A stretch of 63,946 bases of DNA, the filler included, from Dugesia japonica (taxonomy: Eukaryota), in the NCBI GenBank assembly GCA_001938525.1. It is 6 parts of 6 records of this genome, joined end to end, with 100 filler letters (N's around TTAATTAATTAA, not from the genome) between each part and the next. Parts side by side here need not be neighbours in the genome. Positions count along the whole stretch, not along the records: positions 21,680 to 30,115 come from MQRL01570568.1; 5 more parts are not named here. One strand, given 5' to 3'. The notes under the pieces are model-generated. The model saw only the letters and a list, made by a program, of their open reading frames with translations, was not told where the DNA came from and did not search any database. Of the stretch, positions 4,531 through 41,149 are shown piece after piece. A program made the position numbers and the translations under genes. Each line of letters opens with the position of its first letter. The stretch's first letter is position 1.

Positions 4531-7500
4531 CACAAACCTCTTGACAAGCTTATACGGAATGATTATCTTCTGATTATTTTCACTTTCTTTTAATTATAAA
4601 TTATCTTTCAACAGTATCCTATCTAATTTATGAAAATACACAGAATCTTGGATCAACTTTGGTACTATCGAAGAACGGTTCATAATAAAAACTTTAATTG
4701 CTTCCAAAACAGAATTCTCATCTTGAGCGGCACGATACATTTAAATATTAAATTAGTCTGATGAAATTGCATTTCAAAATCTTACTCTCCTCTTTTCTAT
4801 TTTTCTTTCTTTGTGTTCACTTTGACATTGAGAACAATAGATCAATAATATTCTGGATAGCTCGTCTGCATTGTTATGGTTTTCAGCCTTCCGATATTTC
4901 AGATCAAAATCATAGCCAGATAATTCCCTTAACCATGTATGAAATTGTGGACTTATTGGTTTTGTCGTGGACTTCAAAAATTTGAGTGCTTCTGTACGTA
5001 TATAAAATTTCTTACTGTATAAGTAGTGCTTGAAGTATAGCACATACTCATATATAGCTAATAACTCCTTCCGTGTCACACAATAATAGTATTTAAAAGC
5101 CTCGATCCATATGCAATAACCTTTTTACATCCATCTTGTACCTGATTAAGAACAGCAACAATATCGCTATAACATGCATCTGTGTCTAAAATAAAATAAA
5201 AATATTTGTTTGTGAAAGCCAATACTAGAGTATTTGATAAAGAATGTTTAGTTTCTGGAAACTTTCTTGACACTCTTCATCCCCCTGTATGTCTTTAACA
5301 TGTCCGTTAGTAGCCTCATATAATGGTTTGGCAATTTGAGCAAATTTAAAAACAAATTTACGGTAGTAATTTGCCAAGCCAAGAAATGACTGTAATTGCT
5401 TGGTGCACTTTGGAATTTCCGCTTCAGAAATTTTCTTTATTATACCATTATTAGTACTTATTCCCTCTTTTTATATTTTATGAACTAAAAAACTAAGTTC
5501 AGTTTTATACAGATTACACTTCTTTGGATTAAATCTTAATCCAGCTTTTTGTATTCGTTCAAAGCCTTTCTCTAGGTTCCTATCGTGTTCTTCCACTGTT
5601 GTCCCGTAAACCAAGACATCTTCTAAATACGCCGCGACTCCGTTATAAAGGATATCCTCGAATAATACATGCATGAGACTTGGAAAATTCTCTGGGGCTG
5701 TTGACAACCCGAACGGCATTCGGTTATAGCGCAACATGCTTTTTTTTGTCGAAAATGCTGTTTTCAATTGTGACTATTCATCCACGTATACTTGTTAATA
5801 AGCTTGTCCTAAATCTAATGACAAAAAAATGGAAGCTCCTGCCAACGTATCGAATATGGTTTGCGGATCTAACATGGGGAAACTAAATTTCTCTGTAACC
5901 TCATTAATTTTCCTATGGTCCTGGTACATCCTAATCGTTCCGTCCTTCTTTCCCACAACTAGGAGTGGCGAGTTCCATGGACAATGACGCTTCTTAATTA
6001 TACTCATTTTCAACAACTTCGATATCATATCATCCACTTTAGATTTCTTTTGTATCGCCATTCCTCTTGGAATTTGACTTATTAGAGTCCCTACTGTTTT
6101 TATACAATGTGTTACCAGATTTTTACATCCTAAATCGAACTCCGATGTCATAAAAATAGTACCATATTCCAATACTAATTCTGTGAACTTGACAATTTAT
6201 TGGATCCAAATATATTTTAAGCCCTTTGTCTTCTTTCTTCATCCCGATATGTGAAACCTAAGACTTCCGAATCTATTGAATTCATTGCGACTCTCGATAA
6301 AAGCTTCAATCNNNNNNNNNNNNNNNNNNNNNNNNNNNNNNNNNNNNNNNNNNNNNNNNNNNNNNNNNNNNNNNNNNNNNNNNNNNNNNNNNNNNNNNNN
6401 NNNNNNNNNNNNNNNNNNNNNNNNNNNNNNNNNNNNNNNNNNNNNNNNNNNNNNNNNNNNNNNNNNNNNNNNNNNNNNNNNNNNNNNNNNNNNNNNNNNN
6501 NNTCTCCACTTATCTTCTGACATCACCGTTACTGCTGTGCCCGTATCCCATAACATCTCTATCATCTTTCCACAACGTTCAACCAAACTCCACCATCTAC
6601 CATCTACCTTCTTGAACATCATAGCATTTTGATTTCCTGCATTTGCAGCATTTAATTCAACGACTCCACAGACGAAATATATGCCATGGAGCGTATGTCG
6701 TTTAAATTATGATCTTGTCTATTTGTGTTTTGATCATATATATTAGCTTCAATCTCTTTCTCTTCGAAATCTCTGCTTTCATCATGTTTCATATCGTCAT
6801 AGCTATATGCTAGATCGCCTGAATCATTTTCTTCATGAATACACGAACCTTTTTTGTGCTATTTTGCATTAAGCCACAATTATTAAAATAATGATTGTCC
6901 TTATCACAAATCAAACAACACTTATTCAATGGACAGTTGTTTCTGACATGACCGGACTCACCACAACAATGACATTCACCTGGTTGAAGTCGTCGTTATT
7001 CGGGCTCAGGGAACCTTTTCGCTCTGTTATATACTCTTCTTGCTATATACTTCATGGAAACCATAGGTCTTTAGGGCTTATCGTATTCGTTCAACTTCTC
7101 CACAAGTTGTCTTTTCTCTGAAACCTGCAGTCCTATATTTGAGTTGGAATACTGTCTCTCTTGATTATTTACCAATGGTTTGATTACCTGTGGTATATTG
7201 TGTCTAATTGGCCTTTTAATACATGTTACTGCTGCGTATGTCGATCCATGTTCTATTTGGCTATCTTCAATTGCAATAACTTCTGACTTTTCTTCAATAC
7301 TCATTGAATTTTCAAAATTTATGGTCAATTTCTCAATTTCTTCCAAGGACATATCTGGCTTCATTGCGATTGACTCCTTTACTTTCCCGGAACACATTCA
7401 TTTTAAAATTATATCTTTCACGATCATGTTTTTTGTTTGCTTCACCGACAAAACTTCTTTTACCAACTACCTCACTCTAAAAGCAAAATTCTCATACCTT

Positions 7501-11614: not shown

Positions 11615-11704
11615 ATTAAAATAAAGAAAAAGCTTCGATCAAAATAAAATTTATTTTTAAAGAAATTCATTTTATTTTGATCGAAGCTTTTTCTTTATTT
11701 TAAT
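11615..11704. mobile_element. Short foldback copy of the AAGCTTCGATCAAAAT family
   Basis: Perfect inverted arms ATTAAAATAAAGAAAAAGCTTCGATCAAAATAAAAT. Confidence 0.75.
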
Positions 11705-14700: not shown

Positions 14701-14989
14701 TAACAAATCGAAATAAGATATTTTAAAACATTTATCATGCAATAATAATACTTTTAGTTAACGATGAATTTATTTTACGGGAATAAAAAATATTAAAAAA
14801 TACGAGCAAAAGTTACGTAATACACACAAATTTACTCGTTTATTAAAAACCCGATAATTCGGTAAACTTTTTAAAAATACGAGAACCAATTACGTAATAC
14901 ACACTAATGTGTGTCTTCGGGTTATGAAAAAGTTATGCAATCAATTTTTACACACGGGGGGGGGGGTTCTGCTGAATGTGTGCTGGCTA

Positions 14990-15473
14990 CGACTGCCACT
15001 ATCTATCTACTATACGGATAGTTTTTTCCTGGAGGTTAAAAATATAAGTTTGGAAAAACTAACCGGTTTAATGGTGAGAGATCAGTTATTGGATACATCC
15101 AATTATAGTACAAGTCATCCCCTTTACTCAAACGCATTAAACAGTGCTATTGGGAAATTCAAGGATGAGACTAAAGGAAAGAAATATAGCGAGTGGATAT
15201 TTTATAGGCCAAGGTGTTATAGCATACTTAGCGATAATGAATCCATGAAAGCTAAGGACATAACACTAAAAACAGTGGAATCACACATCAGTCATATCTT
15301 GACGGTTTTAATAATACTGCAATGGTCTATGTAGATCAATTTCAAATATCTACTCGAAATCATCAACTGTATAGCATATAAAATAAAAAACTAGCAATAT
15401 CTAATATGGATGATAAGAGAAAGTGGACTGAAAAAAATATAGGCTTACCGTACGGACATTATAAATTAAATTA
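14990..15473 (+). pseudogene. Polinton pPolB C-terminal remnant (distinct subfamily)
   Basis: YYTDSFFL (decayed YTDTDS), LDTSNYSTSHPLYS, IGKFKDE, YRPRCYS, MKAKDI; after a frameshift STRNHQLYSI*NKKLAISNMDDKRKW...LPYGHYKLN*. Confidence 0.88.
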
Positions 15474-18749: not shown

Positions 18750-18922
18750 TTTAAAATAATAGCTTCGATCAAAATTTGTTTTTTTGGTTTTTGATAATAA
18801 TTCTATATTTCGACTTTGCATTCGCCAGGAATTGACTTTTCCTGGCGAAGACAAAGTCGAAATCTAGAATTATTATCAAAAACCAAAAAAAAACAAATTT
18901 TTATCGAAGCTTTTATTTTAAA
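18750..18922. mobile_element. Full foldback with two inverted degenerate minimal hammerhead motifs (Penelope-like inverted pLTR)
   Basis: About 80-bp inverted arms; plus strand TTC-CTGGCGA-AGACAAAGTC-GAAA-TC-TA-GAATT with a mirror copy on minus. Confidence 0.75.
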
Positions 18923-20460: not shown

Positions 20461-20917
20461 ATGAATAAAAATCATCCTAAAGCACCACTAAGACAAGATA
20501 CAGAATGTTACATGGGATACAAAAGAGAAAGCAAGCATAGAATATTTGTCAATAAAAGTCTTCAATTAAGAAAAATCAAGTTTTTTGGATTCGATATGGA
20601 TTACACATTAGCAATGTACAAATCACCAGAACTCGAGCATATGACATTTAATCTGCTGAAGAATCGAATGATTGATATAGGTTATCCACGAGAAATCATG
20701 GATTTTACGTACAATCCAACATTCCCAATTCGTGGATTATGGATAGATAAAAAATTTGGGAATTTATTGAAAATGGATAATTATGGAAATGTTTTGATGG
20801 CTTTCCATGGACTTAAGAAAATGTCAAATTCAGAAATATTGGGGAAATATCCAAATAAATTCGTCAAATTCGAACAGCCACGTTTTATGGTTACTAATAC
20901 ATTATATAATTTGCCGG
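20461..20917 (+). CDS. NT5C2: First coding exon of cytosolic purine 5'-nucleotidase (cN-II, HAD family)
   Basis: HRIFVNKSLQL, HAD motif I GFDMDYTLAMYKSP, FPIRGLW, NTLYNLP, then G|GTAATT donor at 20918. Confidence 0.93.
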
Positions 20918-21579
20918 GTAATTATTGATTGAATTAGATAAACGATTACATTATTTCAGACATTTTATATTTGAGTTTGAATTTAAATTTGAAATGATGA
21001 TAATAAATTTCTGTTCGAAATTTACATTATTTAATTCCTATATGAAATCTGATTTGAATTATGAACAAATTTAAAATCGATTTATTAATTTTTTATTCTA
21101 ATTATCCACGATATTCTATTGAAAAAATTAAGTATATAGAAAATTTTTTTTTTTAATTAAGTTTTTATTATTATTTTTCGAGAAAAATAAATTTAATTAA
21201 ATATTATCAAAACATTAAATCAAAGTTTCTTTGCAGCAATTTTCTTTCTCAGTTATAATTCAAATCTATATTACTCATTAATTATTCAGTAGTTATTCAG
21301 TTGACATTTTCATTTTTTTATTAATTCTGAAATATTATTTATTACTCTTTTTATTAAGATTTATGACAAAAAAGATATATTAAATAAAACAACTTTAGAA
21401 AAAATTGAAAAACGATATTTACTTTTATTTCAAATAAAAATCAATAATTACGATAAGCTATTAAATGAAAATGAGAATTGCTTCAAATAGAGAACTGAAA
21501 TGCCGTGGAAGAATTTGAGTTTAATTGATATTGGAAAATTAAAATTTATATTGATTTAGTTAAATCAATTAAATTCGTA

Positions 21580-21679: not shown

Positions 21680-21680
21680 A

Positions 21681-21773
21681 TTAATATTTTGCTGGGTATC
21701 CTTTCATCTTGATAATAGAGGACACTCTTCGTGGCATGGAATCAACGAGTCTGCAACATAACGAAGTGGATAT
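21681..21773 (-). pseudogene. Tc1-family transposase C-terminus, interrupted by the Polinton
   Basis: ISTSLCCRLVDSMPRRVSSIIKMKGYPAKY* matches the Tc1 LV.SMPRR..AVI...G..TKY* end; homology stops at about 21774. Confidence 0.88.
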
Positions 21774-21774
21774 A

Positions 21775-21861
21775 AGTAATGTGAATATAACTGTGTGCAA
21801 TCAGGGATGGAACTCCGCATCACCCCAATGATGCACAAACTACAGTTATATTCACATTACT
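21775..21861. repeat. 87-nt terminal hairpin with a 20-bp perfect outer stem
   Basis: AGTAATGTGAATATAACTGT (21775-21794) is the exact reverse complement of 21842-21861; the inner region pairs with bulges. Confidence 0.9.
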
Positions 21862-21914
21862 AAATAAAATGTCTTTTTTAAAATATTAAAGTAACTGTAA
21901 AATATTAATTATTA

Positions 21915-22112
21915 AAATATTAAATGTTAAATGATATCTGGTCAAATATTAAATGTTAAATGATATCTGGTCAAATATTAAATGTTAANNNNNNNNNNNN
22001 NNNNNNNNNNNNNNNNNNNNNNNNNNNNNNNNNNNNNNTATTAAATGTTAAATGATATCTGGTCAAATATTAAATGTTAAATGATATCTGGTCAAATATT
22101 AAATGTTAAATG
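21915..22112. repeat. 29-bp subterminal tandem repeat AAATATTAAATGTTAAATGATATCTGGTC
   Basis: At least four copies around an N gap; the unit is built from AAAT(A/G)(T/A)T heptamers. Confidence 0.9.
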
Positions 22113-22176
22113 TTTTTATGTCAGACACTTATGTACATTGTAAATTATTAAATATTAAATATTAAATCTGCGAGTA

Positions 22177-25100
22177 ATGCATTTAACCACTAAAATGTCC
22201 TCTTTAAATTATTTATATATAAAAATGATTCCTTTACCATTATTTTGTAAAATTTGTAATAGAAGATTTTTAAAATTAAGTAGTGCAAAATCTCACTTTA
22301 ATTCTTTAAAACATAAACAGAATGTTATTAAATTTAACTTTAAAGAGTTACCTGGTGAAGAAACAATTGATTTTGAGCCTGATATCAGAGAAATATTAAA
22401 TATTTATAAATATTATGAAATAACTTATTTATTAGATTCTAAAGTTGAAATGAAATTAAATGTCGATGTAATATATGAACGTGTCAGAGAAATTGATGTT
22501 TTTAAAAAAGAAATTAAACAAATCATCAGGAAATATTTTAAATCTATGAAACAAATAAACATAAGAATGAAAGTAAAATGTAAATATTTAAAAAATGATA
22601 TTGAAAGAGATTTATATTCAAGTTCAGGAAATAAAATAATTACTATTAAAACTGAAATATCAAATAATATAAATGAAATATTTAATGAATTAAATAAAAA
22701 TATTGAAGATAAAGAACGTGAAGAATCTGGCTGGACATTTTCACATATTTTAAATTATGTTTTGTATTTAAATAAATATAAATCAAAGGCTGGTGCGACA
22801 AATAAAAAATTACCATTTACTAAACCAGGTGTTATTAATATTGAAAATAAAGATAATAAATGTTTTTTATATTCAATTCTAGCACATAAATATCTATATA
22901 AAAATCCGACACGTGAAAATAATTATAAAAGACATCTCTCAGAATTAAATTCAGATTTTGAATTTCCAATGAAAATAATTGATATTCCTAAATTTGAGAA
23001 ATTAAATAATCTTAAAATTAATGTTTTAAATGTGAATGCTAACAAGAAACTTGAGCCACTTTACATTTCACATTTTTCATTTAAAACTTCAGTAGATGAA
23101 AATAAATGTAACCTTTTAATGTATAAAAATCATTATATTTTATGTCGAGATTTATCAATTTTCTTTTCAAGAAATGGAAATAAAAATTATCCTTGTTTAC
23201 GATGTATGAATTGTTATTCTNNNNNNNNNNNNNNNNNNNNNNNNNNNNNNNNNNNNNNNNNNNNNNNNNNNNNNNNNNNNNNNNNNNNNNNNNNNNNNNN
23301 NNNNNNNNNNNNNNNNNNNNNNATGAAAAATAAAATACCTTTCATATTAATTGGTGATTTTGAAACATTTACAAATAAAAATAACAAACAAAAACCTTTA
23401 TCTTTAGGAATTTATCTTCACAGTGAACACCAAAACCTTTTTAAATCTAAATATTATTGTTTTACAGGTGAAAATATTTATCTTAAATTCTTAAAATTTT
23501 TAGATTATATTAATAATAAATTAAATGATATTAAAGATAATAAATTAATAAAATATTATATCGGAAACCCTAAATTTAATAATGATTTATGTTATTATTG
23601 TAATAATAAAATAATTACTCCAGTTAGAGATCATAACCATTTTACAGGTGAATTCAGAGGTTTTTCATGTAATACTTGTAATATTAATGATTTAAGTGTT
23701 AAAAAATTATTTATCCCATTTTATTTTCATAATGCNNNNNNNNNNNNNNNNNNNNNNNNNNNNNNNNNNNNNNNNNNNNNNNNNNNNNNNNNNNNNNNNN
23801 NNNNNNNNNNNCATTCTTCAGAAAATTATATTTCATTTGAATATGAAAATATTAGATTCCTGGATTCAAGTAGATTATTACCATTTACAACCGTAGAAAC
23901 TATGGGTAATCTACTAACATCTTCAGGAATTTATCCAATCTTAAAATCTTACAACTTAAAACCTAAAAAAATAATATTTCCATATGAATATGTTAAAGGA
24001 AATAATTCAAAAGAAGTAGAAACATTATTAAAATCAACGAAGTTGCTAGAGAAAGAAGATTTCTTTAATACTTTAACTCAAAAAGAAATATCTAAATTTG
24101 AATATCAAGAATTTAAAATTGAATTTAAAAAACATGATAATCTCTGGAATTATCTTCTTTATTATATGAAACTTGATGTATTAATTTTAACAGATTTCCT
24201 TGAAAATTTTAGAGTTTCATGTTTAAATAATATTTTAAAATTAGATCCTTGTTATTCATATTCAGCACCTGGTTTTGCATGGGAAACTGGAACATTTAAT
24301 GCAAATATTAAACTTAAATATTCAAAACCTGAAACTTATGATTTATTTTTAATAATTGAACAAGGAATTCGAGGTGGTTTTTCATGTGTTCTTGGTGAAC
24401 GTCAAGTTTTTTCAAGTAATAATAAATTTTTAAAATATATTGATGAAAATTCATTATATGCAAGTTGCATGACAAAATCACTTCCAACAGGTGAACTTGT
24501 AAATATGTCAGATTTAATTTATGAACCTTCAACTCAAGATATTAATTTTATATATGAAGTTGATCTTGATTATCCTAAAGAATTACATGATAAAACTAAA
24601 TATTTTCCATTTTGTCCTGAAAGAATTAATATAAAATCTGAGATGTTAAGTAATTACCAGTTAAATTTTAATAAGAAAATATCAAAAGATAACATAAAAC
24701 TAACATTAAATCAATTCGATAAGAAAAATTATATAGTTCTTGGAAGTACATTAGATTTATATTTAAAATTTGGAATGAAACTTGTTAAAGTTCATAAGAA
24801 AATTAAAATGATAACATCTCCTTGGTTTAAAGATTATGTTTTAAAATTAATANNNNTAAGAAAAGAATCTAAAAGAAATAAAGATGTCTTTGGAGATTAT
24901 ATTTATAAATTAATGTTAAATAGTTTCTATGGAAAAACACTTGAAAATATTAGAAATAGATGTAATATTGAAATTGTAGATTCTGACATAAAATATCAAA
25001 GATTTGCTTCTAAACCTAATTTTAAATCATCTAAGATATTCTGTTTAAATGACACAAATGAAGCCACAGTTGCCGCAATTAATATGATAAAATCTAATTT

Positions 25101-25707
25101 AAAATATAATAAATTTCCATATATTGGTTTCACAATTCTAGAATATGCTAAAGAAGTTATGTATGATTTTATTTATAATCAATTAGATCCTTTAATTTCT
25201 CAAGATAACTATAAAATTCATTATACAGATACTGATGCAATCTTTTTAGAAATAAAATATAAAGATAATCTTTTAAAATTAGAGAGTTTATTAGGTGACA
25301 ATTTATTTCAAATGAAAGATGAAAAACCTAATTGTGAAATTTTACAAGGTAATTTTATAAAATCTAAATCTTATGCTTATTCTTTTGCCGAACCATGTGA
25401 AAATATTGATTTTGATTCTAGAAATAAAGGTGTTAAGAAAAATAATAAATTATTAATGGATGATTTTGATTTAATATTAAAAGATCCANAGAAAATATTT
25501 TATGGAACAAATTATTCTTTAAAATCTGATAATCATGAAATTGAATTAATATCTCAAAAGAAAATTATATTAATAGGTTATGATGATAAAAGAATAATCG
25601 AAGATAATGGAATTATAACATGGCCACATGGAAATCAATATTTCTGTGTAAAATGTAACACTTGGCATTTAAGATTAGATTTAATAAATAACTTGTTAAC
25701 ATGTTAA
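22177..25707 (+). CDS. polB: Protein-primed family B DNA polymerase with N-terminal C2H2 finger, terminal-protein/OTU-like region and EndoVII/HNH insert
   Basis: Exo I GDFET, Exo II FHN, Exo III YYMKLDV; Pol A YIDENSLYASCM, B KLMLNSFYGK, C YTDTDA; KGVK; YDDKR..PHG; EndoVII CYYC..VRDHNHFTGEFRGFSCNTCN. The true start may be 22195 or 22225; contains N gaps. Confidence 0.96.
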   Translation: MHLTTKMSSLNYLYIKMIPLPLFCKICNRRFLKLSSAKSHFNSLKHKQNVIKFNFKELPGEETIDFEPDIREILNIYKYYEITYLLDSKVEMKLNVDVIYERVREIDVFKKEIKQIIRKYFKSMKQINIRMKVKCKYLKNDIERDLYSSSGNKIITIKTEISNNINEIFNELNKNIEDKEREESGWTFSHILNYVLYLNKYKSKAGATNKKLPFTKPGVINIENKDNKCFLYSILAHKYLYKNPTRENNYKRHLSELNSDFEFPMKIIDIPKFEKLNNLKINVLNVNANKKLEPLYISHFSFKTSVDENKCNLLMYKNHYILCRDLSIFFSRNGNKNYPCLRCMNCYSXXXXXXXXXXXXXXXXXXXXXXXXXXXXXXXXXXMKNKIPFILIGDFETFTNKNNKQKPLSLGIYLHSEHQNLFKSKYYCFTGENIYLKFLKFLDYINNKLNDIKDNKLIKYYIGNPKFNNDLCYYCNNKIITPVRDHNHFTGEFRGFSCNTCNINDLSVKKLFIPFYFHNXXXXXXXXXXXXXXXXXXXXXXXXXXHSSENYISFEYENIRFLDSSRLLPFTTVETMGNLLTSSGIYPILKSYNLKPKKIIFPYEYVKGNNSKEVETLLKSTKLLEKEDFFNTLTQKEISKFEYQEFKIEFKKHDNLWNYLLYYMKLDVLILTDFLENFRVSCLNNILKLDPCYSYSAPGFAWETGTFNANIKLKYSKPETYDLFLIIEQGIRGGFSCVLGERQVFSSNNKFLKYIDENSLYASCMTKSLPTGELVNMSDLIYEPSTQDINFIYEVDLDYPKELHDKTKYFPFCPERINIKSEMLSNYQLNFNKKISKDNIKLTLNQFDKKNYIVLGSTLDLYLKFGMKLVKVHKKIKMITSPWFKDYVLKLIXXRKESKRNKDVFGDYIYKLMLNSFYGKTLENIRNRCNIEIVDSDIKYQRFASKPNFKSSKIFCLNDTNEATVAAINMIKSNLKYNKFPYIGFTILEYAKEVMYDFIYNQLDPLISQDNYKIHYTDTDAIFLEIKYKDNLLKLESLLGDNLFQMKDEKPNCEILQGNFIKSKSYAYSFAEPCENIDFDSRNKGVKKNNKLLMDDFDLILKDPXKIFYGTNYSLKSDNHEIELISQKKIILIGYDDKRIIEDNGIITWPHGNQYFCVKCNTWHLRLDLINNLLTC

Positions 25708-25885
25708 AAAAGCGCCACGCGTGGCGTATTTATTAAGTATAATAATTGATTTTAAGCCAGCCGGCTGGTCGGTTTTAAGATTTTACATGTTAGTATTTGA
25801 TTTTGGGCGGACCGGCGCGCCGGTTTTAAGTATAATATGTTATATTTTAAGATTTTACATGTTAAAATCGGTCGCGCGCGACCGA
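25696..25885. promoter_or_regulatory. Intergenic array of perfect palindromes
   Basis: TTAACATGTTAA 25696-25707, CGCCACGCGTGGCG 25713-25726, CCAGCCGGCTGG 25757-25768, ACCGGCGCGCCGGT 25811-25824, TCGGTCGCGCGCGACCGA 25868-25885. Function is inferred. Confidence 0.7.
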
Positions 25886-25924
25886 ATTATTAAGTTTTCT
25901 TTAAATATTATTATTAATAAATAG

Positions 25925-26451
25925 ATGACAGATAATCCAACAGAAGAAGAATTAGAAAGAATTGTTAATTCTAAAAAATGTAAATCTGTAAAGATCAATA
26001 ATAAAAATTATTATATTTCTAAAAAAGTTAAAGATGAATTAAAAAAACAACCAAAAGATGGTGGATTTGCATTCTTAGCTGCCATTCCATGGGTAATTGG
26101 TGCTTTAGCAAGTTCAGCTGGAGTTGCATCAGGAATTGCAAATACAGTTGCAAATTCTAGAGATGCTATTAAAAAACAAAAAGAAACAGAATTAATTGAA
26201 TTACAGAAACAAGAACTTATTAAAAAAATGCTCCACCAGTAGCAGTAACTCCAGCAGTAACAACTCCAGCAACTGGATCTGGTATTTTTTTAAATCCATA
26301 TCAAGGCAATGCATTACATAAATATTTAAAAAATATAATTTCAGATTCAGATTTAAAACTATTAACTAAAAATTTTAAAGGTGGCATTGAAATCACTAAA
26401 AATGGAAATGGTATCTATTTAAATCCTTATAAAAATAGTGAAACCCCATAA
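25925..26451 (+). CDS. Putative virion core/membrane-active precursor with adenain-type Gly sites (frameshift at A7 26222-26228)
   Basis: KDGG|FAFLAAIPWVIGALASSAGVASGIA hydrophobic segment. The -1 frame after the A7 run continues APPVAVTP..TGSGIFLNPYQG...NGNGIYLNPYK to TAA 26451. Confidence 0.75.
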
Positions 26452-26459
26452 AGGAGATA

Positions 26460-27515
26460 ATGAATTGTAAAGTACATGAAAGAATTAAATTATTAAAATC
26501 ATTAGTTAAATCTCAAAAGAAATATAGTAAATTTTTTTGTCCAGAATCTAGAATAATAGAACCTAGAATTGAAGAACCTATAATAGAACCTGTAAGAGAA
26601 CCAATGATAGATCTAATAAATGAACCAATAATAGAACCAATAATAGAACCTGTAAGAGAACCTGTAAGAGAACCTGTAAGAGAACCTGTAAGAGAACCTA
26701 TAAGAGAACGTAAAAAACCACCTACAGCAATAGAAAAATTAATAGTGACATTAAAAGATAAAAAAGAAAAAAACCAAAAAGAATTTAATGATAATTATAC
26801 AGAACAAGATGTTGATGAAGTCTTAACACAAGAAAATGTAACATCAACACATTTATTATTATTAAATGGAGACATAGATGAAAAATTAACAGAAGCAACA
26901 AAACCTATTATAGAAGATATAAGAGTTCGTTTTAAAAAAATTATTACAATTAAATTTCCATTAAATGCTAATTTGGTTTATATATTTAAATTAAATGGAA
27001 AAGAACATTATTATTATAAAACAAAAGTGTTTCCTTTTTATCTTAGTTGTAAATATGTAATTATGGGAAATAGATATATGATAGATAAAAAAGATCCCAG
27101 AACAATAGAGTTTATTTTATTATATGTAACTGAACTGACAGGAATGGGATTAGATTTTGTAAATGATGAATATTGTAATTTTTTATTAACTAAAAGAAAA
27201 GGTAGACCACCTGGCAGTGGAAAGGAAAAAACATTTATTGAAGAAATAGAAGAAATAGATGATGAAAAAGAAATTGAATTAGAAACAGAATATATAGAAC
27301 CAGAACCAGAAACAGGAGAATATTATGGAAAACATGAAGGTTTTGGTGTTGGTCCAATAGATTTATTTGAAAAGTTAACATTATTAATTTCAGCTGTTAA
27401 ATCTGGACATAATAATCTTAATGAAGATATTAAAAAAGTATGTAAACTATTAAAATATCAAGGTTTAATATCTAACAAGATTTATTTAAGATATAAGCTT
27501 AAATATTTTAAATAA
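26460..27515 (+). CDS. Polinton conserved hypothetical protein with EP(V/I)R repeats, AT-hook and C-terminal helical motif
   Basis: 351-aa ORF; KRKGRPPG AT-hook; acidic tract; GFG...PIDLFEKLTLLISAVKSGHNNLNEDIKKVCKLLKYQGLIS resembles the P.EL..RL.LL.AS..AGN...NEI..I...L...G.I motif of Polinton ORFs. Confidence 0.8.
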   Translation: MNCKVHERIKLLKSLVKSQKKYSKFFCPESRIIEPRIEEPIIEPVREPMIDLINEPIIEPIIEPVREPVREPVREPVREPIRERKKPPTAIEKLIVTLKDKKEKNQKEFNDNYTEQDVDEVLTQENVTSTHLLLLNGDIDEKLTEATKPIIEDIRVRFKKIITIKFPLNANLVYIFKLNGKEHYYYKTKVFPFYLSCKYVIMGNRYMIDKKDPRTIEFILLYVTELTGMGLDFVNDEYCNFLLTKRKGRPPGSGKEKTFIEEIEEIDDEKEIELETEYIEPEPETGEYYGKHEGFGVGPIDLFEKLTLLISAVKSGHNNLNEDIKKVCKLLKYQGLISNKIYLRYKLKYFK

Positions 27516-27542
27516 ATATAATTTATATTTTATAATTAATAA

Positions 27543-28220
27543 ATGTCGCATCAATTCTTAGTTGTTGGAAAAGAAAGTGAATTAATAATGGATTTAAAAT
27601 GTCCCATACATTTAGATTCAGAATATGAAATTGGATTGTTATGTTTTAGTGTTTATAATGTTATTTTTAATATTACAAAATTAAATAATAAATTTACTGT
27701 TGAAAATAAAAATTATACATTAGAACTTGGATCTTATGAAGTTAAAGAAATATCAGTAAAATTAAAAACCTATGGAATTGAAGTTACTGCTGATATTACA
27801 ACTGTTAAATCTAACATGAAAACTAAAAAGATATTAACTTTTGATAATGAATCTTTCTTTCATTTGATCCTAGGTTTTAAACCTGGAACTTATCAACCAG
27901 GAGAGTATATATCAGAAAATAAAATTGATATTACAAATATTAATACAATAAATTTAACATGTAATATTGTTCAAGGTAATTATATAAAATCTGAAAAAGG
28001 AGAAACTGAAAATATAAATTTATTACATGCATTTCCAATTAATACGGTTGGTTTAGGATATAAAATACTAGAACGTCCATCACCACCAATTTATTCTAAA
28101 ATTAATACTAATTACATTTCAAGGATAAAATTTAATGTTGTAGATGAACATTTTAATACTATAGATTTTAGTGGTGAAACAATTACAGTTTTAGTTCATT
28201 TAAGAAAATATCGACATTAA
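27543..28220 (+). CDS. Minor capsid protein (penton, single jelly-roll)
   Basis: PIHL...YEIGLL.F..YN.IFNI...NNKF, LELGSYEV..I, LGF, SENKIDI..INTI.L.CNIV.G.Y, LHAF, GYKI.E.P..PIY..I, DE....IDF.GE.I....HLR: the typical Polinton penton pattern. Confidence 0.85.
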   Translation: MSHQFLVVGKESELIMDLKCPIHLDSEYEIGLLCFSVYNVIFNITKLNNKFTVENKNYTLELGSYEVKEISVKLKTYGIEVTADITTVKSNMKTKKILTFDNESFFHLILGFKPGTYQPGEYISENKIDITNINTINLTCNIVQGNYIKSEKGETENINLLHAFPINTVGLGYKILERPSPPIYSKINTNYISRIKFNVVDEHFNTIDFSGETITVLVHLRKYRH

Positions 28221-28672
28221 AATATCAGATTCATTAGTGTTTTCAAAAATATCAGTAATAGGTTTAATAGTTTTAGGTTCAAGTTTAAATTCTGACCAAT
28301 CAAATTCAACATCAGAAAGTTCTAATATTCTTCTCATATTTTTTCGGTTAATGTTTTTTTATTATTTCTATATAATATATAATCTTGTACTTCTTTAAGT
28401 GGAATAATAGGATTTTTCATTCTAAATATAATATGTTTTTTTGATTCATTTAAAATTTTTGTTTCATCATCACTCAAAGGCTTTTTTCCTTTATAATATT
28501 TTTTTAATGTTTTAATTGTTTTAGAATCAAATGAAAAACCGGGGTTTTTTCTTTTAGTATTTATTATTTCTGGGAAACCACCCATTATTTCATCAGGTAA
28601 ATGTTGATAAATTAAACAAGTTTTATAAATATTTTCAAGAGTTTTTAAATTGTAAGGATTTACTGTTGCCAT
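28200..28672 (-). CDS. Hypothetical viral protein (MATVNPYNLK...), split at an A7 run or as two ATGA-coupled ORFs
   Basis: ATG at 28672 in TTAAAATG context; stop at 28334. The -1 frame from A7 (28354-28360) runs NINRKNMRRILELSDVEFDWSEF...SIFS* to 28200. Confidence 0.65.
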
Positions 28673-28699
28673 TTTAAAATATAATATTTTAATGATAGA

Positions 28700-28733
28700 G
28701 TTAAAAAAAGCGCCACGCGTGGCGTATTTATTA
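28700..28733. promoter_or_regulatory. Second copy of the GTTAAAAAA(A)GCGCCACGCGTGGCGTATTTATTA motif, between divergent genes
   Basis: Identical to 25703-25735 apart from A-run length; lies between ATG 28672(-) and ATG 28744(+). Confidence 0.75.
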
Positions 28734-28743
28734 TCTTCAAGAA

Positions 28744-29145
28744 ATGTATAATTTATTAGATTTTTTAAAAACATTTGGAATTCAAACAACAACAAATTTT
28801 GATTTATATTCAATTGCTAACTTTTTAGATCTAAATCTTGAGATTTATATGAAAAATGAAATACCTAAAGAATTAACCGGAAATATTATATTTAATTATC
28901 AAAACTCATATGAAAATGGAACACATTGGACTGCTTTTAAAAAAGGATATTACTTTGATTCTTTTGGTTTAAAACCTTTAGATGAAATAGTGAAGCATGT
29001 CACGAAATATAATGAAATTAAAGTTCAACATTTTGGAACTAATATATGTGGAATCTTGTGTATTTATTTTTTATATAAAATCAACGATAATTTCTCGGAA
29101 ATAATATCTGAAATGAAAGATTTATATGATAATTTAGATAAATAA
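28744..29145 (+). CDS. Adenain-like cysteine maturation protease
   Basis: GTHW (His), YFDSFG (Asp), Q.....ICG..CIYFL (Gln, Cys). Confidence 0.93.
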   Translation: MYNLLDFLKTFGIQTTTNFDLYSIANFLDLNLEIYMKNEIPKELTGNIIFNYQNSYENGTHWTAFKKGYYFDSFGLKPLDEIVKHVTKYNEIKVQHFGTNICGILCIYFLYKINDNFSEIISEMKDLYDNLDK

Positions 29146-29146
29146 A

Positions 29147-30115
29147 ATGAATGTACTCGGACAAAGTATTTTTAATGTGGATACAACACAAATATTAAAA
29201 AATATTAATGCTAAAATTATAATGTCAGAAGCTCAAAATGAAAATAAATATGTAAATGAAACAGGTGACACAATAACATGTTTAAAAATAACAGATGATC
29301 CCAAGGAATCATTTGATGCAGTTAATTTAAAATATATAAAAACCTTAGAAGAAACTAATTTAAAAAACATAAAACAATCAGAACAAATTAATTTAAAAAA
29401 CATAAAGTCTCTTGAAGATAAATTACAAAACATAAAACAATCAGAAGAAATTAATTTAAAAAACTTAAAAACCTTAGAAGAAGTTAATTTAAAAAACATA
29501 AAGTCTCTTGAAAATAACATAAAAACCTTAGAAGATAAATTAAAAGAAACTAATTTAAAAAACATAAAACAATCAGAAGAAGTTAATTTAAAATATATAA
29601 AAACCTTAGAAGATAAATTACAGAAACATGAAATTATTTTCAGTAGATTATTAAAAGTTGACAGTTTCACAGTTAACAAATTATATTTAGAATCTAAAAT
29701 CACTGAACTTAAAACTTTAAATGTAGATATTTCAGGTTTAAATCTTAAAATTCAAAAATTAACAAAGAACTGTAACCAAGAAACATTTGACAATATCAAT
29801 TCCGACATAAAAAGATTAAAATTAGAACTATTTCCATATAAAAGAAGTGATTTAATTATTTATTTAAATAAATTAGATTCTCTTGATTCATTGAAAATTA
29901 AAAATGAAATTGAAATGTTAAATAAAAGAATTAACAAATTACATGCTGATATAAATGTAAAAACATTTGATACTTATATCATCTCTATTGATAAACTTAA
30001 AATTTATATAGAAAAAATTAAACCATTGATTTTAAAATTCGCAGAAGATATTGAAAAAGTAAATCCAAAACAACATAAAATATATTCTGATAAAATTAAT
30101 AATTTATTTAAAAAA
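29147..30115 (+). CDS. Putative fibre/coiled-coil virion protein (3' truncated)
   Basis: YVNETGDT...DPKESFDAVNLKYI fibre-like motif, then 11-aa repeats (NLKNIKQSEEI / NLKYIKTLEED-like). Confidence 0.7.
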
Positions 30116-34884: not shown

Positions 34885-35097
34885 CTATTTTCTTGTTGCG
34901 TATTTAATATAGGATTTGCTATAAAATGGAAATGTCGAGAACACAAAAGTGAAATCCATCAAGGCTACTTCCCTTTGACCATCCATATAAACTGTATTTT
35001 GTAGCTCGACAAGGAAATTACTAGCCTTATTATTCATGTAAATAAGTGGACAACTATTACTCGGTAACAGTGTATAGAAATAATTCGTTTTGCTCAT
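34885..35097 (-). pseudogene. Polinton penton N-terminus (LPSNS type)
   Basis: FYTLLPSNSCPLIYMNNKASNFLVELQNTVYMDGQREVALMDF matches FY.TLPSNS...F..N....F...L...I.L.G.WEVAL.EI. Confidence 0.8.
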
Positions 35098-35329
35098 ATT
35101 TCCTATTCTTTGTTAAATTTACTATTTGAGATGCTGATGCAGTAACTACTCTCTTATCCGCCAAACTCCAATAACCGCCATTTTTAATAAAGAAATTAAA
35201 GAAATAAATTTTTTTATTGGATTTTTTAATAAATTTTATTATTTTTTACTCTAAAAGCCACCATTTTCTAGAAACCGCAACCTTTTTTCACAGTATCGTT
35301 TTTGGCGGTTAAGAGAGTAGATACGGTAT

Positions 35330-36790
35330 CTAACTTTGTTTCTCTTATCCATGCCACTTTACATAAAAAAATTTTATATTTCTCAATTCTCTTTGATATG
35401 ATAATTTTTTTTAATTCTTAATACTGTTGGTTGTAGAATAACTTGTAATTCTTGTTCAAAGGAATTTTTCATCAATGATATTTTCATCATGATCTTTAAT
35501 CACAAACATGATTGGCAGAGGCGTAGTATTCTCAAGGGGCAAGTGTTCTCAAGAGCGCCAGACTAAGAAGGCGCTAAAATGGTGTTTGAAATATTTGTAT
35601 TGTTTATTTTTTGTATCGTTTTAATATGATATCTATCAAGATTGAAGGTTTGTCACTCTCTTGCAGTCAACATTTTGTTATGCACTATCAATCTTATTAT
35701 GTGAATTTAATATTGCTAAACCTAGTCTATAGACTTCAGATTTCGTAACCTATGATCAGAAACATACATCTTATTTAAATATAGTATTTCGTTTGTATTA
35801 CTTCTTGTTTGACTAATCACATGTTTTATCTGCATCAGTTTTTTCGTTAGTCTTTACTTTAGTAGCCATTACATTGGATGACTCATAATTTTTCAGTGGG
35901 GGCGCAAAATATAAATCTTATCCCTGGGCGCCAAACACACTAGGTACGCCTCTGATGATGTGATTCTGTTTGGTATTGATTTTCGATATTTGAAATACTT
36001 CATAACTACAATTACTATCCCAATTCTTGATCAATGATGAAGCTGATATCTTTGAGATTCTAACATGATCACCAATTTTTTACTTTGGTTTCTTGATTGC
36101 TTTTCGTTGTTGTCTCAAAAGACATAATTTTATTGAATTATCAGATGATACATCAAAGAGTCTTGCTCCATGTAATACCCTTGTGACTTGTGTGATTACA
36201 ACAATCAATTATTTATGGTAATGCGTGTATCCAAGTTTTATTAATAGTATATACAAAGTATTTTTTCAATTCATCTCTCAATGTTCGACTAAATCTTTCA
36301 ATATATGCTGCTTTGTATTGTAAAAATACATAATAGTAATTAATCTTGAGTTTATTAATAATATTCTTGACATTTGAATTGTGGAATTCTTTTCCCTAAT
36401 CCGTTTGCAAATTATCTGGATGCCCCTCTTTAAAGATTGATTTGACTACAGATTCCATATCATTAGTGGATTTTGATTTTATAGGCCCATCTCTTGTAAA
36501 AATACTAAATACATAAACAAATGTTAAAAGTACTTCTATCCTTTATTAATTCTCGAATAATATATCACTTCCTTTAAATTCATTTGCCTTAAATCATCAA
36601 TACCAAAGGTTTTATACGGTCTTGTTGGAAATTTTTACTTAAACTATACGCTAACTAGTTCGATAACCCATTTATCGTCTCGCTTTTGAACTTTTTACTG
36701 CTTTCCCCAACTTTTCTACTCTTTTGAACCCTGTTGGACTTTTTGAGTCTATTCATATTGGTTTGATTTTGTCCATTACGACAATTTTAT
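35330..36790 (-). pseudogene. Polinton retroviral-like integrase with C-terminal chromodomain-like remnant
   Basis: KFPTRPYKTFGIDDLRQMNL, LQTD*GKEFHN, KAAYIERFSRTLR, KIGDHVRISK, FEQELQV; interrupted by a MITE. Confidence 0.88.
35516..35954. mobile_element. hAT-like MITE inserted in the Polinton integrase
   Basis: TIR CAGAGGCGTA / TACGCCTCTG; imperfect 8-bp flanks ATGATTGG / ATGATGTG. Confidence 0.8.
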
Positions 36791-37499
36791 ATAAAGTTGA
36801 GATAAATATGCGATAATTATTCAAAGTTACCCATTGTTTATGTAAAGTTTTAAAGTCCTAATACTGCAAATCCTATTGGTAATAATGCATCAAATTATCC
36901 TCCCCTTTTGTTAATATATTATTTTCCCTATCAATTTCCTATTTTTANNNNNNNNNNNNNNNNNNNNNNNNNNNNNNNNNNNNNNNNNNTCTAGTCTTTT
37001 CTTTTTACTTATAATTAAGATCAACAAAAAATATTCATAATAATCTCTAGCAAATTATCTATAACAAATGTTGGAAATAACTGTATCAATTTTCTTTTTG
37101 ACCTATTTGGAGCCTTTAGCAATTCATTAAAAAACAGAACACTTTGTTTAAATTTCATAATGTTTATTTAAATACAAAAAGCAGATGGTTTATATCTTGA
37201 CCCCTTTTCCATGTACATTTGAAAGTTTCTTTCCAAAGCGTTTTGATAGCTCTTTGAACTTGCTCAACTGTTTCTTTACCTGCTTCTTTGTTAGATGCTT
37301 TTTCTTTGTTTGTTCCTCCTTCACTGAATTCATCTTTTATTTTGTTTCTTATTTTTTACAGCTAGCTTTTTACCTTTTATTTTAGAATTATTCTAAATTT
37401 TCGAACCACTATTTACCTGATTAATTAAAATTTTTTCAAATTCAGAAATTTTATAATTAAATAATTACCTTAATTGTTCAATTGTTTTTATGCTGTTAT

Positions 37500-37800
37500 T
37501 CCACTCTGATTATAAATATCAGTTCATATTCTAAATTCATCTAGACATTATTGTGCAAAGTCAAGAAAAAGATACCCATGTGGATTTATTGTTGCATCAT
37601 TTAATGATTCCATAAGAAATTTTCTAGTATTAGAATAAGCTTGGCTTGCTAAAAAATCATACACTGTTTTATCTCTTGGATTTTTAAATAGAACCAAGTA
37701 TTGTGTATTTAAATTACGGGTTCTATGACCTCAACCTATGTGAAATAGATTTTGAGTAATGAAAATCACAGTAAAATTACAATGTCTTGATAAAGTGTAA
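37500..37800 (-). pseudogene. Polinton A32/FtsK-like packaging ATPase, C-terminal half
   Basis: SRHCNFTVIFITQNLFHIG*GHRTRNLNTQYLVLFKNPRD...DATINPHGYLFLDF. Confidence 0.9.
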
Positions 37801-39570
37801 AGATTATAATATTTAGACTCAGGAATTTATATTATCAAAATCAAATTTATAATATAATGTCAGATTTAAACAGTTTAATTGAGAAAATACAATACTAATG
37901 CATGAAAAACAACGAATAATGTATTATTAAATAAATTTTGATAATTGGAATTGTGTTTTTATTTATATCATAAATAAAAATTTAACAAACTAGTATATAA
38001 CAAAATGAAAACAAAAAAATAGGATTTAAAACATTTATTAATAAAATTCTCAAACAGTTGTATCTACCAAATATGGTTAATTGTATTATCATATCTTTTG
38101 AATCCTTTAAAAACTACAGTTACTAAGTACTTTTTATCACTCGAATAGCTATTTTCATCTGATGCTTTATCATTTATAAAAGATGCATCATCTATTTTCA
38201 GCATATCATCAATTCATGATAAACTAATTTTGATAATTGATTTATCTACTGTACTGATATTGCATATTGAATGAACATCTTTTTAGTCTAACTGCTTCCT
38301 AAAATTATAATAATAACAGTAACACTAGTATCAAATTTTACTTGGAATGCATAAACAATCAACTTTAAAATGAAATTCATCTTGAATTGATAATAATCTC
38401 GATACATTATAGAATCAATTGCAATTGTCATCATATTGTCATGGGTAAAGATAACTTGTTCAATGCATAATTCTGCCTTTTCAAATTCTCAAATAAATTT
38501 TGTAATATTACCCATTTTCATGTATTCTTGTATATACATTATGACCATATATTTGTTGATGATTATTTTTTATTTGAATCAATGTATGCGCTACCCTTTA
38601 TTGGCATTGTATTGTCAAATTTTGATAGAATATCATTAATTGCATTTTCATTAAAGAAATATTATAAATTGTTTCGGTTTATAAAGTAAATACTTCATTT
38701 ATGTACATGATTTGTAGTGCTTTACATTGTGTATTATGTATAATTAATTAAAATTTTATATGACATTATGATGACATAAACATTTTTCATCTCTTTGTAT
38801 GTGTGTATAATTAATCGATTTTGATTTTAAATAATATAAACGAAAATTAAATTATTTAACTTATTGACAATGAATATTTATAACATTATAGAACGCATGG
38901 CGGAATATATTGAAATTAATTATTCAGTTTCCAAGGAACCATTACAATTAGTGATACAAGTCAATTTGGTCGATATTCCAACTTGAAAGATTAACGATAC
39001 ATGATAAAATACTTGATCAAAACAATAAAATATATTATTTTATTTCAGTGCTCAATCAAATTAGCCAGTTAAAGTAAATAATTTGATTTATAATTATTAC
39101 AATAGTTTTAATACATTTTATTTTTAGTGTGTCAATTTAAACCATATCAGGTGTAACTAGAAAAATATTTTTACGAAAAAATTTTGTTATTTAAATTTGT
39201 GCGACTATTCTTGTCAATAGTTTTATTTTATAAATAGTATTTCTATTTTTGTAAATTAATAAATTTTAGAAAATTTTTTTAAATTTGAATTTTTACTTGT
39301 TTTTGTTACCAATAGTGTTATTTTAATATTTTTAATTTTTATCAATGCAATTTTATTATTATTTTGACTTTTTTCAGTATAAATAGTTTGTAAAAGTTTT
39401 AACTCTTATTTATTAAAGTAAATCAACATATATCTTATAAAATTCATTAAAATTTGAAATTTACTCGAAAAATAGTGACGTGTAAATTTGAAATTAAATT
39501 AAAAAATAATTAAAATTAACACATGAAATAAAATTAGTAGAAGGAAGCATTTTTAGCTAGAAGTCCTTTA

Positions 39571-39670: not shown

Positions 39671-41149
39671 AAATGAAGTAAAAAAATTAATAAAAGTAAA
39701 ATTAGAATAAATATTTTAATAAAAAATTTATAATTGCCAGAAATTAATTCCTTGTCAAATTTGTTTGTTTAATCACCTTTTGTTATGAAATATATTTTTT
39801 TTAAAACTCAAGTGTTAATTTTTATGGAACCAAATAACAAAATAGAAGATTCTGAGGAAACTACTTACAATATATTTGAAACTTATTGACTCCTTTTTTA
39901 AGATATTTATTTTAGTATTCAAAATCCGATTAGTAAATTGTTTAGCAGATTTTATGCGTATCATTATCCAATTCAACATTTTGATAGAAATTAAGCAATT
40001 AAAAAAACTTACTAACTCCGATTATTTTATTAAGTTTTGAATTTAGTTTATAGAAACTTTAAAAACTGGTTAATGTTGTTGTTTACTTTACATATTTACA
40101 TAATTTCTTAAAATAATTTCTATACTTTTATAATTTTATATAATATAATATATATAGAAATTATTTAAATTTATTTGCATTATATTTTAAAAATCTGTTT
40201 TTACTTTTGTACAATAATATTTAAATGCTAGAAAAAAATAAACTTTAATTTAATATAATATAATATAATGATATATACCAAATTAAAAAATTTCCCAGGT
40301 ATATTTTAAAATCTTTGAATCGCTCTTACAGAGTTAATAAGTAAACCGTTTCATAAGTAGTCTAAAATATTTTCTCCAAAAACGTTTAAGAGTAAAAATG
40401 TTTTAATTTTTTAATTTTAACCAATTTAAGTAAAAGATCAATTCAATTTAATTTTTTATTACAATTCAAAATAAATAGAATAGATTTTAATCTATCATCA
40501 TTATGATGAATTTCCTTCAAATTAAATTGTCCTAAGGCCAAAATAATGTCTGTAGAACCTTTTAGAGAAACAATGGATAAAAATAAAGATTTCGATATAC
40601 GAACAAATTTACTATTTTTAAAAGAAGTATCATTTAAAAACTCATGCTTTGATTTTCGAGTTTCAATAAATTTAACCATAGATAAATTTAGAGTTTCTTT
40701 ATTTTCAACGAATAATAATTCTTTGAATAGAGGGAATTTATTTAATACTACTACTACTTTTAATCTTTATGTAATTTAAGTTTTAACTTTTACGTTTTTT
40801 TAATTATTTTGGTTTATTTAAATTGATATTGGCGCTACATTTGTCAACATTAACAATACCAATAATTTTTTAAAACAAGTAAAAGTCGATTTATCTGCAA
40901 CTACGGTCACAATCATTTTTGCAATAAGAAATATCCGTTTTTTTTGAAACAATGTAATTGAGGAAATAAATAAAAAAAATTTTCCCTCTTTTGGACGATG
41001 AACTCGAAAGCATTAAATCAATCAGTCAAAATGAAAAATTAAAAACAATTATAATTCATTTTTTGAATGAGAGAAAAGACTTGAGTGTATATTATGTAGC
41101 TAATCTAAACATACTTATTTGTATAGAATCGACACGTGGAGATACTACA

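Follow-up and report, generated by a model that had tools for sequence, protein, structure and literature searches.

An adintovirus-like Polinton, seen in its left part, in a contig of a likely flatworm

Polintons (Mavericks) that carry virion genes are widespread in animals. According to PMC8502044, the animal Polintons called adintoviruses combine an OTU-bearing protein-primed DNA polymerase B (pPolB) with an adenain-like protease, a penton and a pX-like core protein, and PMC10748475 gives 20,702 integrase-linked pPolB1 homologs in 960 genomes. Four Polintons of the planarian Schmidtea mediterranea (Polinton-1_SM, Polinton-2_SM, Polinton1_SM and Polinton2_SM; 11.6–15.9 kb) are catalogued in Table S1 of PMC4028283, where two of the four have capsid, penton, ATPase and protease all present. 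Planarian Polintons are targets of, and repressed by, PIWI-interacting RNAs (piRNAs; PMC8532177), and Mavericks are reported to have expanded in planarian genomes, including Dugesia (bioRxiv 2025.12.11.693146). Here we describe an element in a 63,946-nt stretch of DNA (the window), which consists of six contigs joined by artificial N44-TTAATTAATTAA-N44 spacers. One contig (bp 21,680–30,115; 8,436 bp) very probably holds the left 8.3 kb of an adintovirus-like Polinton/Maverick, with one frame-broken gene, that likely inserted recently into a Tc1-like transposon of a likely flatworm. The element part spans bp 21,775–30,115, and its right end is the contig end, inside the last open reading frame (ORF). 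It is an animal Polinton on four features found in it, a pPolB, predicted terminal-protein and vOTU domains on that polymerase, a penton and a protease, and the adintovirus-like identity proposed in the original prediction is supported. Since virion-gene Polintons are widespread in animals and already catalogued in planarians, the element in itself is unremarkable; what gives it value is that it represents a divergent family, by appearance a young one, in what is likely a planarian.

Seven intronless ORFs, each with an ATG start, take up 88% of bp 21,775–30,115, so the earlier description of tightly packed, stop-free genes stands in the main; it needs amending in that the core gene is split and the polymerase gene holds four stretches of N. 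The GC content of the contig is 22.5%, compared with 23.9–27.9% in the other five. As had been claimed, the remaining elements of the window are decayed: the longest of 54 stop-free frames (≥72 aa) in those five contigs is only 159 aa, and the transposon pieces that Pfam recognizes among 48 of these frames are fragments.

The pPolB gene (bp 22,177–25,707, plus strand; 1,176 aa) was identified from Pfam, from its homologs and from a structure model. Its layout comprises a C2H2 finger, a terminal-protein-like domain (about aa 90–203), a vOTU domain (about aa 211–328), an exonuclease with an EndoVII/HNH-like insertion, and the polymerase proper; Pfam reports PF03175 (E 8.8e-19), zf-C2H2, and PF02945 (EndoVII; E 1.3e-4, below its cut-off). 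The four N stretches (102, 76, 4 and 1 nt; 183 nt in all) hide about 60 codons, Exo II included, and the reading frame is preserved through all of them. In an alignment of 26 proteins the residues of Exo I, Exo III and Pol A, B and C vary little or not at all; D394/E396, Y663/D667, D756, K911/N915 and D1018-T1019 are the same in 26 of 26. A model of aa 1–348 (mean score of the predicted local distance difference test, pLDDT, 73) resembles Y-family little-finger/PAD folds over aa 90–203 (Z 6.6–6.8, root-mean-square deviation (rmsd) about 3, 92–102 residues aligned; for 4ir1, Z 6.6, rmsd 2.9, 92 aligned) and OTU domains over aa 211–328 (Z 7.0, rmsd 3.8–4.1, 99–110 aligned; for 3phu, Z 7.0, rmsd 3.8, 99 aligned), and C229 and H319 of the vOTU region are invariant in 48 of 48 sequences. 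The polymerase is thus predicted, from these folds and the conserved Cys and His, to carry N-terminal terminal-protein and vOTU domains. Its domains and motifs match the TP-vOTU-Exo-Palm layout given for Polinton polymerases in PMC11161782, down to the little-finger match with 4IR1. Such a family would replicate by protein priming, the predicted role of the terminal-protein domain being to start synthesis at the AGT terminus of the element and that of the vOTU domain to cut the terminal protein free.

A search with aa 546–1170 found 51 homologs among 7,997 scored candidates, the closest (P0001) being 38% identical. Named matches are mostly from beetles, a spider, a midge and nematodes (one is labeled Enterobacter), and they include C. 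briggsae and C. brenneri proteins with PF02945; the best viral match of the structure model is Drosophila-associated adintovirus 2 (E 1.7e-12), and a single-protein search of viral contigs with the polymerase gave nothing. In a FastTree phylogeny of 76 rows (75 of 88 candidates kept, 13 dropped for short or no alignment), which the original prediction had proposed as a check, the element lies on a long branch (1.02) as sister to P0001, within a broad clade that also contains Caenorhabditis, Parasteatoda and Pyrocoelia (beetle) proteins. The Alpha panel of PMC8502044 includes Caenorhabditis and Parasteatoda, and related contigs carry PLA2X, the core gene of the Alpha class (that of the Beta class being GasderminX); the element is likely an Alpha-class adintovirus, placed by its tree neighbors and PLA2X-bearing relatives rather than by type sequences. 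A separate observation concerns the EndoVII/HNH-like Cys/His motif inside the polymerase (bp 23,575–23,685; aa 467–503), which is invariant in 26 of 26 aligned proteins, insect and spider polymerases included; its spread here (beetle, spider, midge) exceeds the nematode and oomycete range that PMC10748475 gives for the pPolB2 HNH domain.

Three further genes form the visible part of what would be the virion module. The penton gene (bp 27,543–28,220, plus strand; 225 aa) has 780 relatives at E ≤ 0.001 and matches 8 of 31 related loci; its model (pLDDT 95.7) finds the mavirus penton as best PDB match (E 6.6e-9), followed by the adenovirus and Sputnik pentons, and also matches Polinton-like virus (PLV) and adomavirus pentons. 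The model thus confirms a penton with a predicted single jelly-roll fold; its alignment is too variable to support a pattern search. The Adenain/Ulp1-like maturation cysteine protease (bp 28,744–29,145, plus strand; 133 aa) matches 15 of the 31 related loci (best E 1.9e-13) and, in 8 of 8 sequences of the alignment, retains the columns HW, FDS, Q and CG with their His, Asp, Gln and Cys residues, by which the presence of an adenovirus-like cysteine protease is confirmed at the level of sequence. Neither protein was found by a PDB sequence search, nor the protease by Pfam. Both match Polinton-type viral contigs that also bear an integrase, an ATPase and a double-jelly-roll capsid. The earlier calls of pPolB, penton and protease are therefore each borne out, by homologs, motifs or fold.

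The third, a pX-like core protein, is split between two frames. The first half (bp 25,925–26,242, plus strand; 105 aa) carries a GG/F-type motif, at which the protease would cleave the core protein, and the second (bp 26,230–26,451, plus strand), recognized on translation, has two GxGxxLxPY motifs; the change of frame falls around an A7 run at bp 26,222–26,228. In four of the 31 related loci (L004, L012, L023 and L027) a single ORF spans both halves, and that of L023 bears PF08398. Against a profile built from four PLA2X-type relatives, the first half matches positions 112–176 of 211 (E 8.6e-5 among 494 sequences), with no match to the PLA2 part of such genes; the second half alone matches weakly (E 0.21), and the first-half ORF found no longer homolog among 672 candidates. 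A core-like gene had thus been named correctly, although not as an intact one, and the break may be a mutation or an assembly error. In one related locus (L004:10220-11251) the PLA2X gene and the protease read as a single ORF; they are separate in L012, L023 and L027.

The major capsid protein, ATPase and integrase had been noted as not visible, and profile searches agree. The major capsid profile (five PF21738 proteins) finds nothing in this contig, which stops mid-element, or in the whole window; the profiles for rve integrase (22 relatives) and FtsK/A32-like ATPase (11 relatives) find nothing in the contig, which ends mid-ORF. About half of a typical 13–25 kb element lies outside the contig. 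The family would be capsid-encoding, with its major capsid and ATPase beyond the contig end, and an rve integrase, likely also beyond it, would insert the element. An ATPase-integrase-penton set on the next contig (bp 30,216–39,570) was considered as the missing right half and rejected because it has its own penton, unmatched by that of the element, and because of its stops and frameshifts. This set is a decayed Polinton of another family (bp 34,920–37,820, minus strand) with remnants of an ATPase (bp 37,512–37,817; 47% identical to related locus L015, with 3 stops in 103 aa), an integrase (about bp 35,960–36,730; frameshifted, and with 3 stops over the 156 aa that align) and a penton (bp 34,921–35,088). 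A C-terminal pPolB remnant with one frameshift and one stop (bp 14,860–15,470, plus strand) belongs to a further decayed Polinton copy. At least three Polinton types lie within the window.

That the element is a copy or close sister of one of the four catalogued S. mediterranea families is possible, if less than probable. Two of those families carry virion genes as described above, planarian Polintons are piRNA targets, and the host groups with flatworms. On the other side, an exact-sequence look-up of four element proteins in a 15-billion protein collection found none of them (five proteins of the window are absent in all), although Repbase consensus proteins need not be there, and the best polymerase match is distant; the diversity of Polinton types in the window also makes uncatalogued families plausible. 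A new lineage is not shown, the catalogued families being known here by their names and sizes alone.

The evidence for the host comes from the contig preceding that of the element, which contains a fast-evolving host exon for an NT5C2-like cytosolic 5′-nucleotidase (bp 20,461–20,928, plus strand; PF05761, E 1e-47). All named relatives found are animal, and in a quick tree of 54 rows the exon joins nine flatworm-clade rows (SH-aLRT 93) on a long branch. The host is thus an animal, as expected of an adintovirus, on the assumption that the contigs come from one organism; together with the low GC content, the grouping with flatworms suggests a planarian. Among 24 listed sequencing runs, 12 contain part of the element contig and seven hold 26–51% of its sampled words; these seven come from three studies under a single species label, and one of them may be the source data. 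Five rows with shares of 0.05–0.10 are left aside. No RNA run is among the listed runs that contain words of the contig.

The element appears to have inserted recently. There are no premature stops in its 2,317 codons, where 6.2–6.7% of single changes would create one, which gives a 95% upper bound of 0.64–0.69% neutral change; this bound presumes one real copy, since a collapsed assembly would pass for a young element. No lesion other than the frame break is visible, and the contrast with the decayed neighboring Polinton remnants makes a recent insertion likely. The claim of recent integration is in this respect supported, with the reservation that a collapsed assembly would look alike. The further claim that the element is near-intact and possibly reactivatable is not, given the half that lies beyond the contig and the broken core gene.

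Collapse of several similar copies into one contig, with the frame break perhaps a homopolymer error, seems fairly unlikely; if it had occurred, the clean ORFs would show a conserved family and not one young insertion. It would fit the fragmented assembly, with small N gaps in the polymerase gene and the tandem array (see below) and repeat-like contig ends, the location of the frame break at an A7 run, the expansion of Mavericks in planarian genomes (bioRxiv 2025.12.11.693146), and the fact that the best runs hold just half of the contig's words. It fits less well with the single specific flank, which meets the terminus exactly where the AGT begins, and with a polymerase frame kept through every N stretch. 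We thus continue to prefer a single recent insertion into a likely flatworm genome, and note the points that weigh against it: the stop count cannot tell a young copy from a collapsed multi-copy assembly, and ORF ends are themselves set by stops; the core gene is frame-broken as assembled; even the best runs reach just 51% of the contig's words, which is unexplained; the host was placed by a quick tree of a single exon of 152 aa, which sits on a long branch; structural Z values of 6–7 are middling by themselves; no major capsid, integrase, ATPase, second terminal inverted repeat (TIR) or target-site duplication (5–8 bp in Polintons) is visible in the contig; and the Tc1 label for the flank, which is just 95 bp, found no match in Pfam or PDB.

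This flank (bp 21,680–21,774, minus strand) holds the 3′ end of a gene, 30 codons in a stop-free frame with its stop at bp 21,681–21,683, interrupted at the first base of the element. By its motif we take the peptide to be the C terminus of a Tc1/mariner transposase, and Pfam and PDB searches did not confirm this; of the proposed junction within a Tc1 gene, then, the interrupted coding end stands and the name of the gene is tentative. The element begins with AGTAAT at bp 21,775, which comes near the (AGT)2 motif reported for the ends of Mavericks in vertebrates (PMC8097293); Polinton TIRs have an AG/AGT end motif. Its first 87 nt (bp 21,775–21,861; strand not applicable) form an imperfect hairpin that starts with AGT, ends with ACT and has perfect 20-bp outer arms. 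The DNA fold has an energy of −26.5 kcal/mol (z −6.84), none of 200 shuffles is equally stable, and an arm pair of this kind arises in none of 30 simulated sequences. The hairpin has no second copy anywhere in the window, and no duplication was found flanking it. Behind it lies a subterminal 29-bp tandem repeat (bp 21,915–22,112; strand not applicable), for which Tandem Repeats Finder (TRF) gives a period of 29 and 100% matches, with 2.6 copies on either side of a 50-N gap. The polymerase gene starts 402 bp from the left end, a distance that falls inside the 100–1,500 bp range of Polinton TIRs in PMC10748475. With one end seen, the likeliest reading of the hairpin is that it forms the outer end of the left TIR, and the tandem array is likely part of that TIR.

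It is rather unlikely that the hairpin instead lies between the flank and the real TIR as a small foldback element in its own right, as a mini-copy with an internal deletion or as a chance fold-back. Other foldback hairpins do occur at four places in the window, a single element end is seen, and accidental annealing has been proposed for terminal palindromes (bioRxiv 2026.07.28.741278). Three of the four (bp 82–223, 11,615–11,704 and 18,771–18,901; arms 27–37 bp, no strand given) are related, AT-rich and likely a host family of miniature inverted-repeat transposable elements, and the fourth (bp 40,111–40,166) is short and unrelated to them; none has sequence in common with the terminal hairpin, which has Maverick-type AGT/ACT ends, lacks a flanking duplication of its own, and is not followed by a restart of flank-like coding sequence. 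Rfam gave no matches within bp 21,680–27,400. The 20-nt terminal arm has no matches in viral contigs; its two metagenome matches, both within bacterial genes, were rejected as chance. When the 62 ends of the 31 related contigs were folded, one had a hairpin of similar strength (L010; z −7.5, against −8.5 here), most of these ends not being true termini. The hairpin concerned (L010:17-75) is a strong 5′-end structure about 590 bp ahead of the polymerase gene of that viral contig.

A second repeated feature is a 29-nt motif whose core is palindromic and rich in GC, present in two exact plus-strand copies in the window, where 100 shuffles give an expectation of zero. The first copy (bp 25,706–25,734) is at the polymerase stop, where 220 bp of CpG-rich intergenic sequence begin, upstream of the core gene (CpG observed/expected 2.8, compared with 0.46 in the polymerase gene), and the second (bp 28,704–28,732) sits between two divergent ORFs, 11 nt ahead of the protease start. 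The motif is likely a promoter (cis-regulatory) element for the structural genes; its core was not found in any of 33 retrieved loci. The original prediction mentions neither this motif nor the terminal hairpin, the 29-bp tandem array, the small minus-strand ORF (see below) or the two decayed Polintons. Also behind the polymerase gene are three more GC-rich palindromes (bp 25,745–25,890; fold z just −2.5) and a 20-nt direct repeat (bp 25,773–25,792 and 25,845–25,864). Taken together, the hairpin termini (a possible structured replication origin or integrase substrate, undescribed for animal Polintons), a full protein-priming machinery and a virion-gene promoter motif might mark a recently active flatworm Polinton lineage in a regenerating model host where piRNAs control Polintons, a wider suggestion that we regard as distinctly doubtful. 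Planarian RNA and piRNA datasets that already exist could reveal at what times such elements are expressed.

It is improbable that the element is a complete functional provirus able to form particles, in which the core break would be either an error or circumvented through ribosomal frameshifting. Every visible catalytic residue is retained, but one half of the element lies out of view, the assembly has a broken core gene where four of 31 related loci have it in one frame, and the A run is not known to be a canonical slippery heptamer. Particle formation has been suggested for insect adintoviruses (PMC8502044), whereas the Maverick copies of vertebrate genomes are mostly degraded (PMC8097293). 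A young, lightly damaged insertion is the more likely state of this copy.

The other ORFs of the element are less easily assigned. ORF3 (bp 26,460–27,515, plus strand; 351 aa) contains a 12-nt repeat (TRF period 12) that encodes EPxx units. It had been called an AT-hook protein, and an AT-hook core (RGRP) is indeed present, but only once, at residue 247. There is no Pfam match and no usable Atlas match for aa 1–345; a C-terminal motif weakly matches the profile of a conserved Polinton protein (four relatives; E 0.015 among 494 sequences), which we take to be the one named PZ. A small ORF (bp 28,334–28,774, minus strand; 146 aa, or 112 aa from its second ATG at bp 28,672), divergent from the protease gene, remains unassigned, with no match in Pfam or among 486 ORFs of related loci. 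The last ORF (bp 29,147–30,115, plus strand) is of coiled-coil type with 11-aa repeats (TRF period 33) and runs to the contig end. The fibre-like label given to it found no database support: Pfam has no match, and the best Atlas score (0.83, below 0.9) is a lead only. Its N-terminal GD..P..DAVN pattern, which we presume to be fibre-like, also occurs in 2 of the 486 relative ORFs and is likewise a lead only.

Elsewhere the window contains broken reverse transcriptase and RNase H pieces of a long terminal repeat retrotransposon (bp 4,777–6,196, minus strand), a broken rve integrase piece that weakly matches the Polinton integrase profile (bp 45,634–46,280, plus strand) and an ISXO2/Merlin-like transposase piece (bp 56,039–56,458, minus strand; PF12762, E 1.6e-12). 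Exact direct duplications adjoin N gaps at bp 57,404–57,594/57,757–57,947 and 48,614–48,683/48,734–48,803, and are probably assembly artefacts.

In its OTU-bearing pPolB, adenain-like protease, penton, pX-like core protein and animal host the element resembles the adintoviruses of PMC8502044, from which it differs in that its core gene lacks a PLA2 domain and is frame-broken; its gene order (POL-pX-PZ-like-penton-protease) is matched by none of 30 labeled related loci. With the S. mediterranea Polintons of PMC4028283, represented here by names and sizes alone, it shares a likely flatworm host and virion genes, and with the nematode pPolB2 Polintons, which have an HNH insertion (PMC10748475), an EndoVII/HNH-like Cys/His motif inside the polymerase. 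A literature search pairing adintovirus with flatworm returned no paper, and one on Polinton hairpins, palindromes and stem-loops returned a single relevant preprint and no report for an animal pPolB Polinton, within a partial coverage that leaves room for an earlier description. The nearest parallel to the left end is in the endogenous virophages and PLVs of Halocafeteria seosinensis (bioRxiv 10.64898/2026.07.28.741278), which have terminal palindromes, proposed to form hairpins, likewise at the extreme end beside host DNA. Those palindromes (52 nt in one subtype) belong to a protist and are found preferentially in elements without pPolB, whereas the structure described here, seen at one end, is an 87-nt imperfect hairpin on an animal element whose pPolB has predicted terminal-protein and vOTU domains. 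Until now, terminal palindromes have been linked for the most part with elements that lack pPolB; for this reason the hairpin, if it is the end structure of the whole family, would be relevant to the unsettled matter of Polinton excision and priming.

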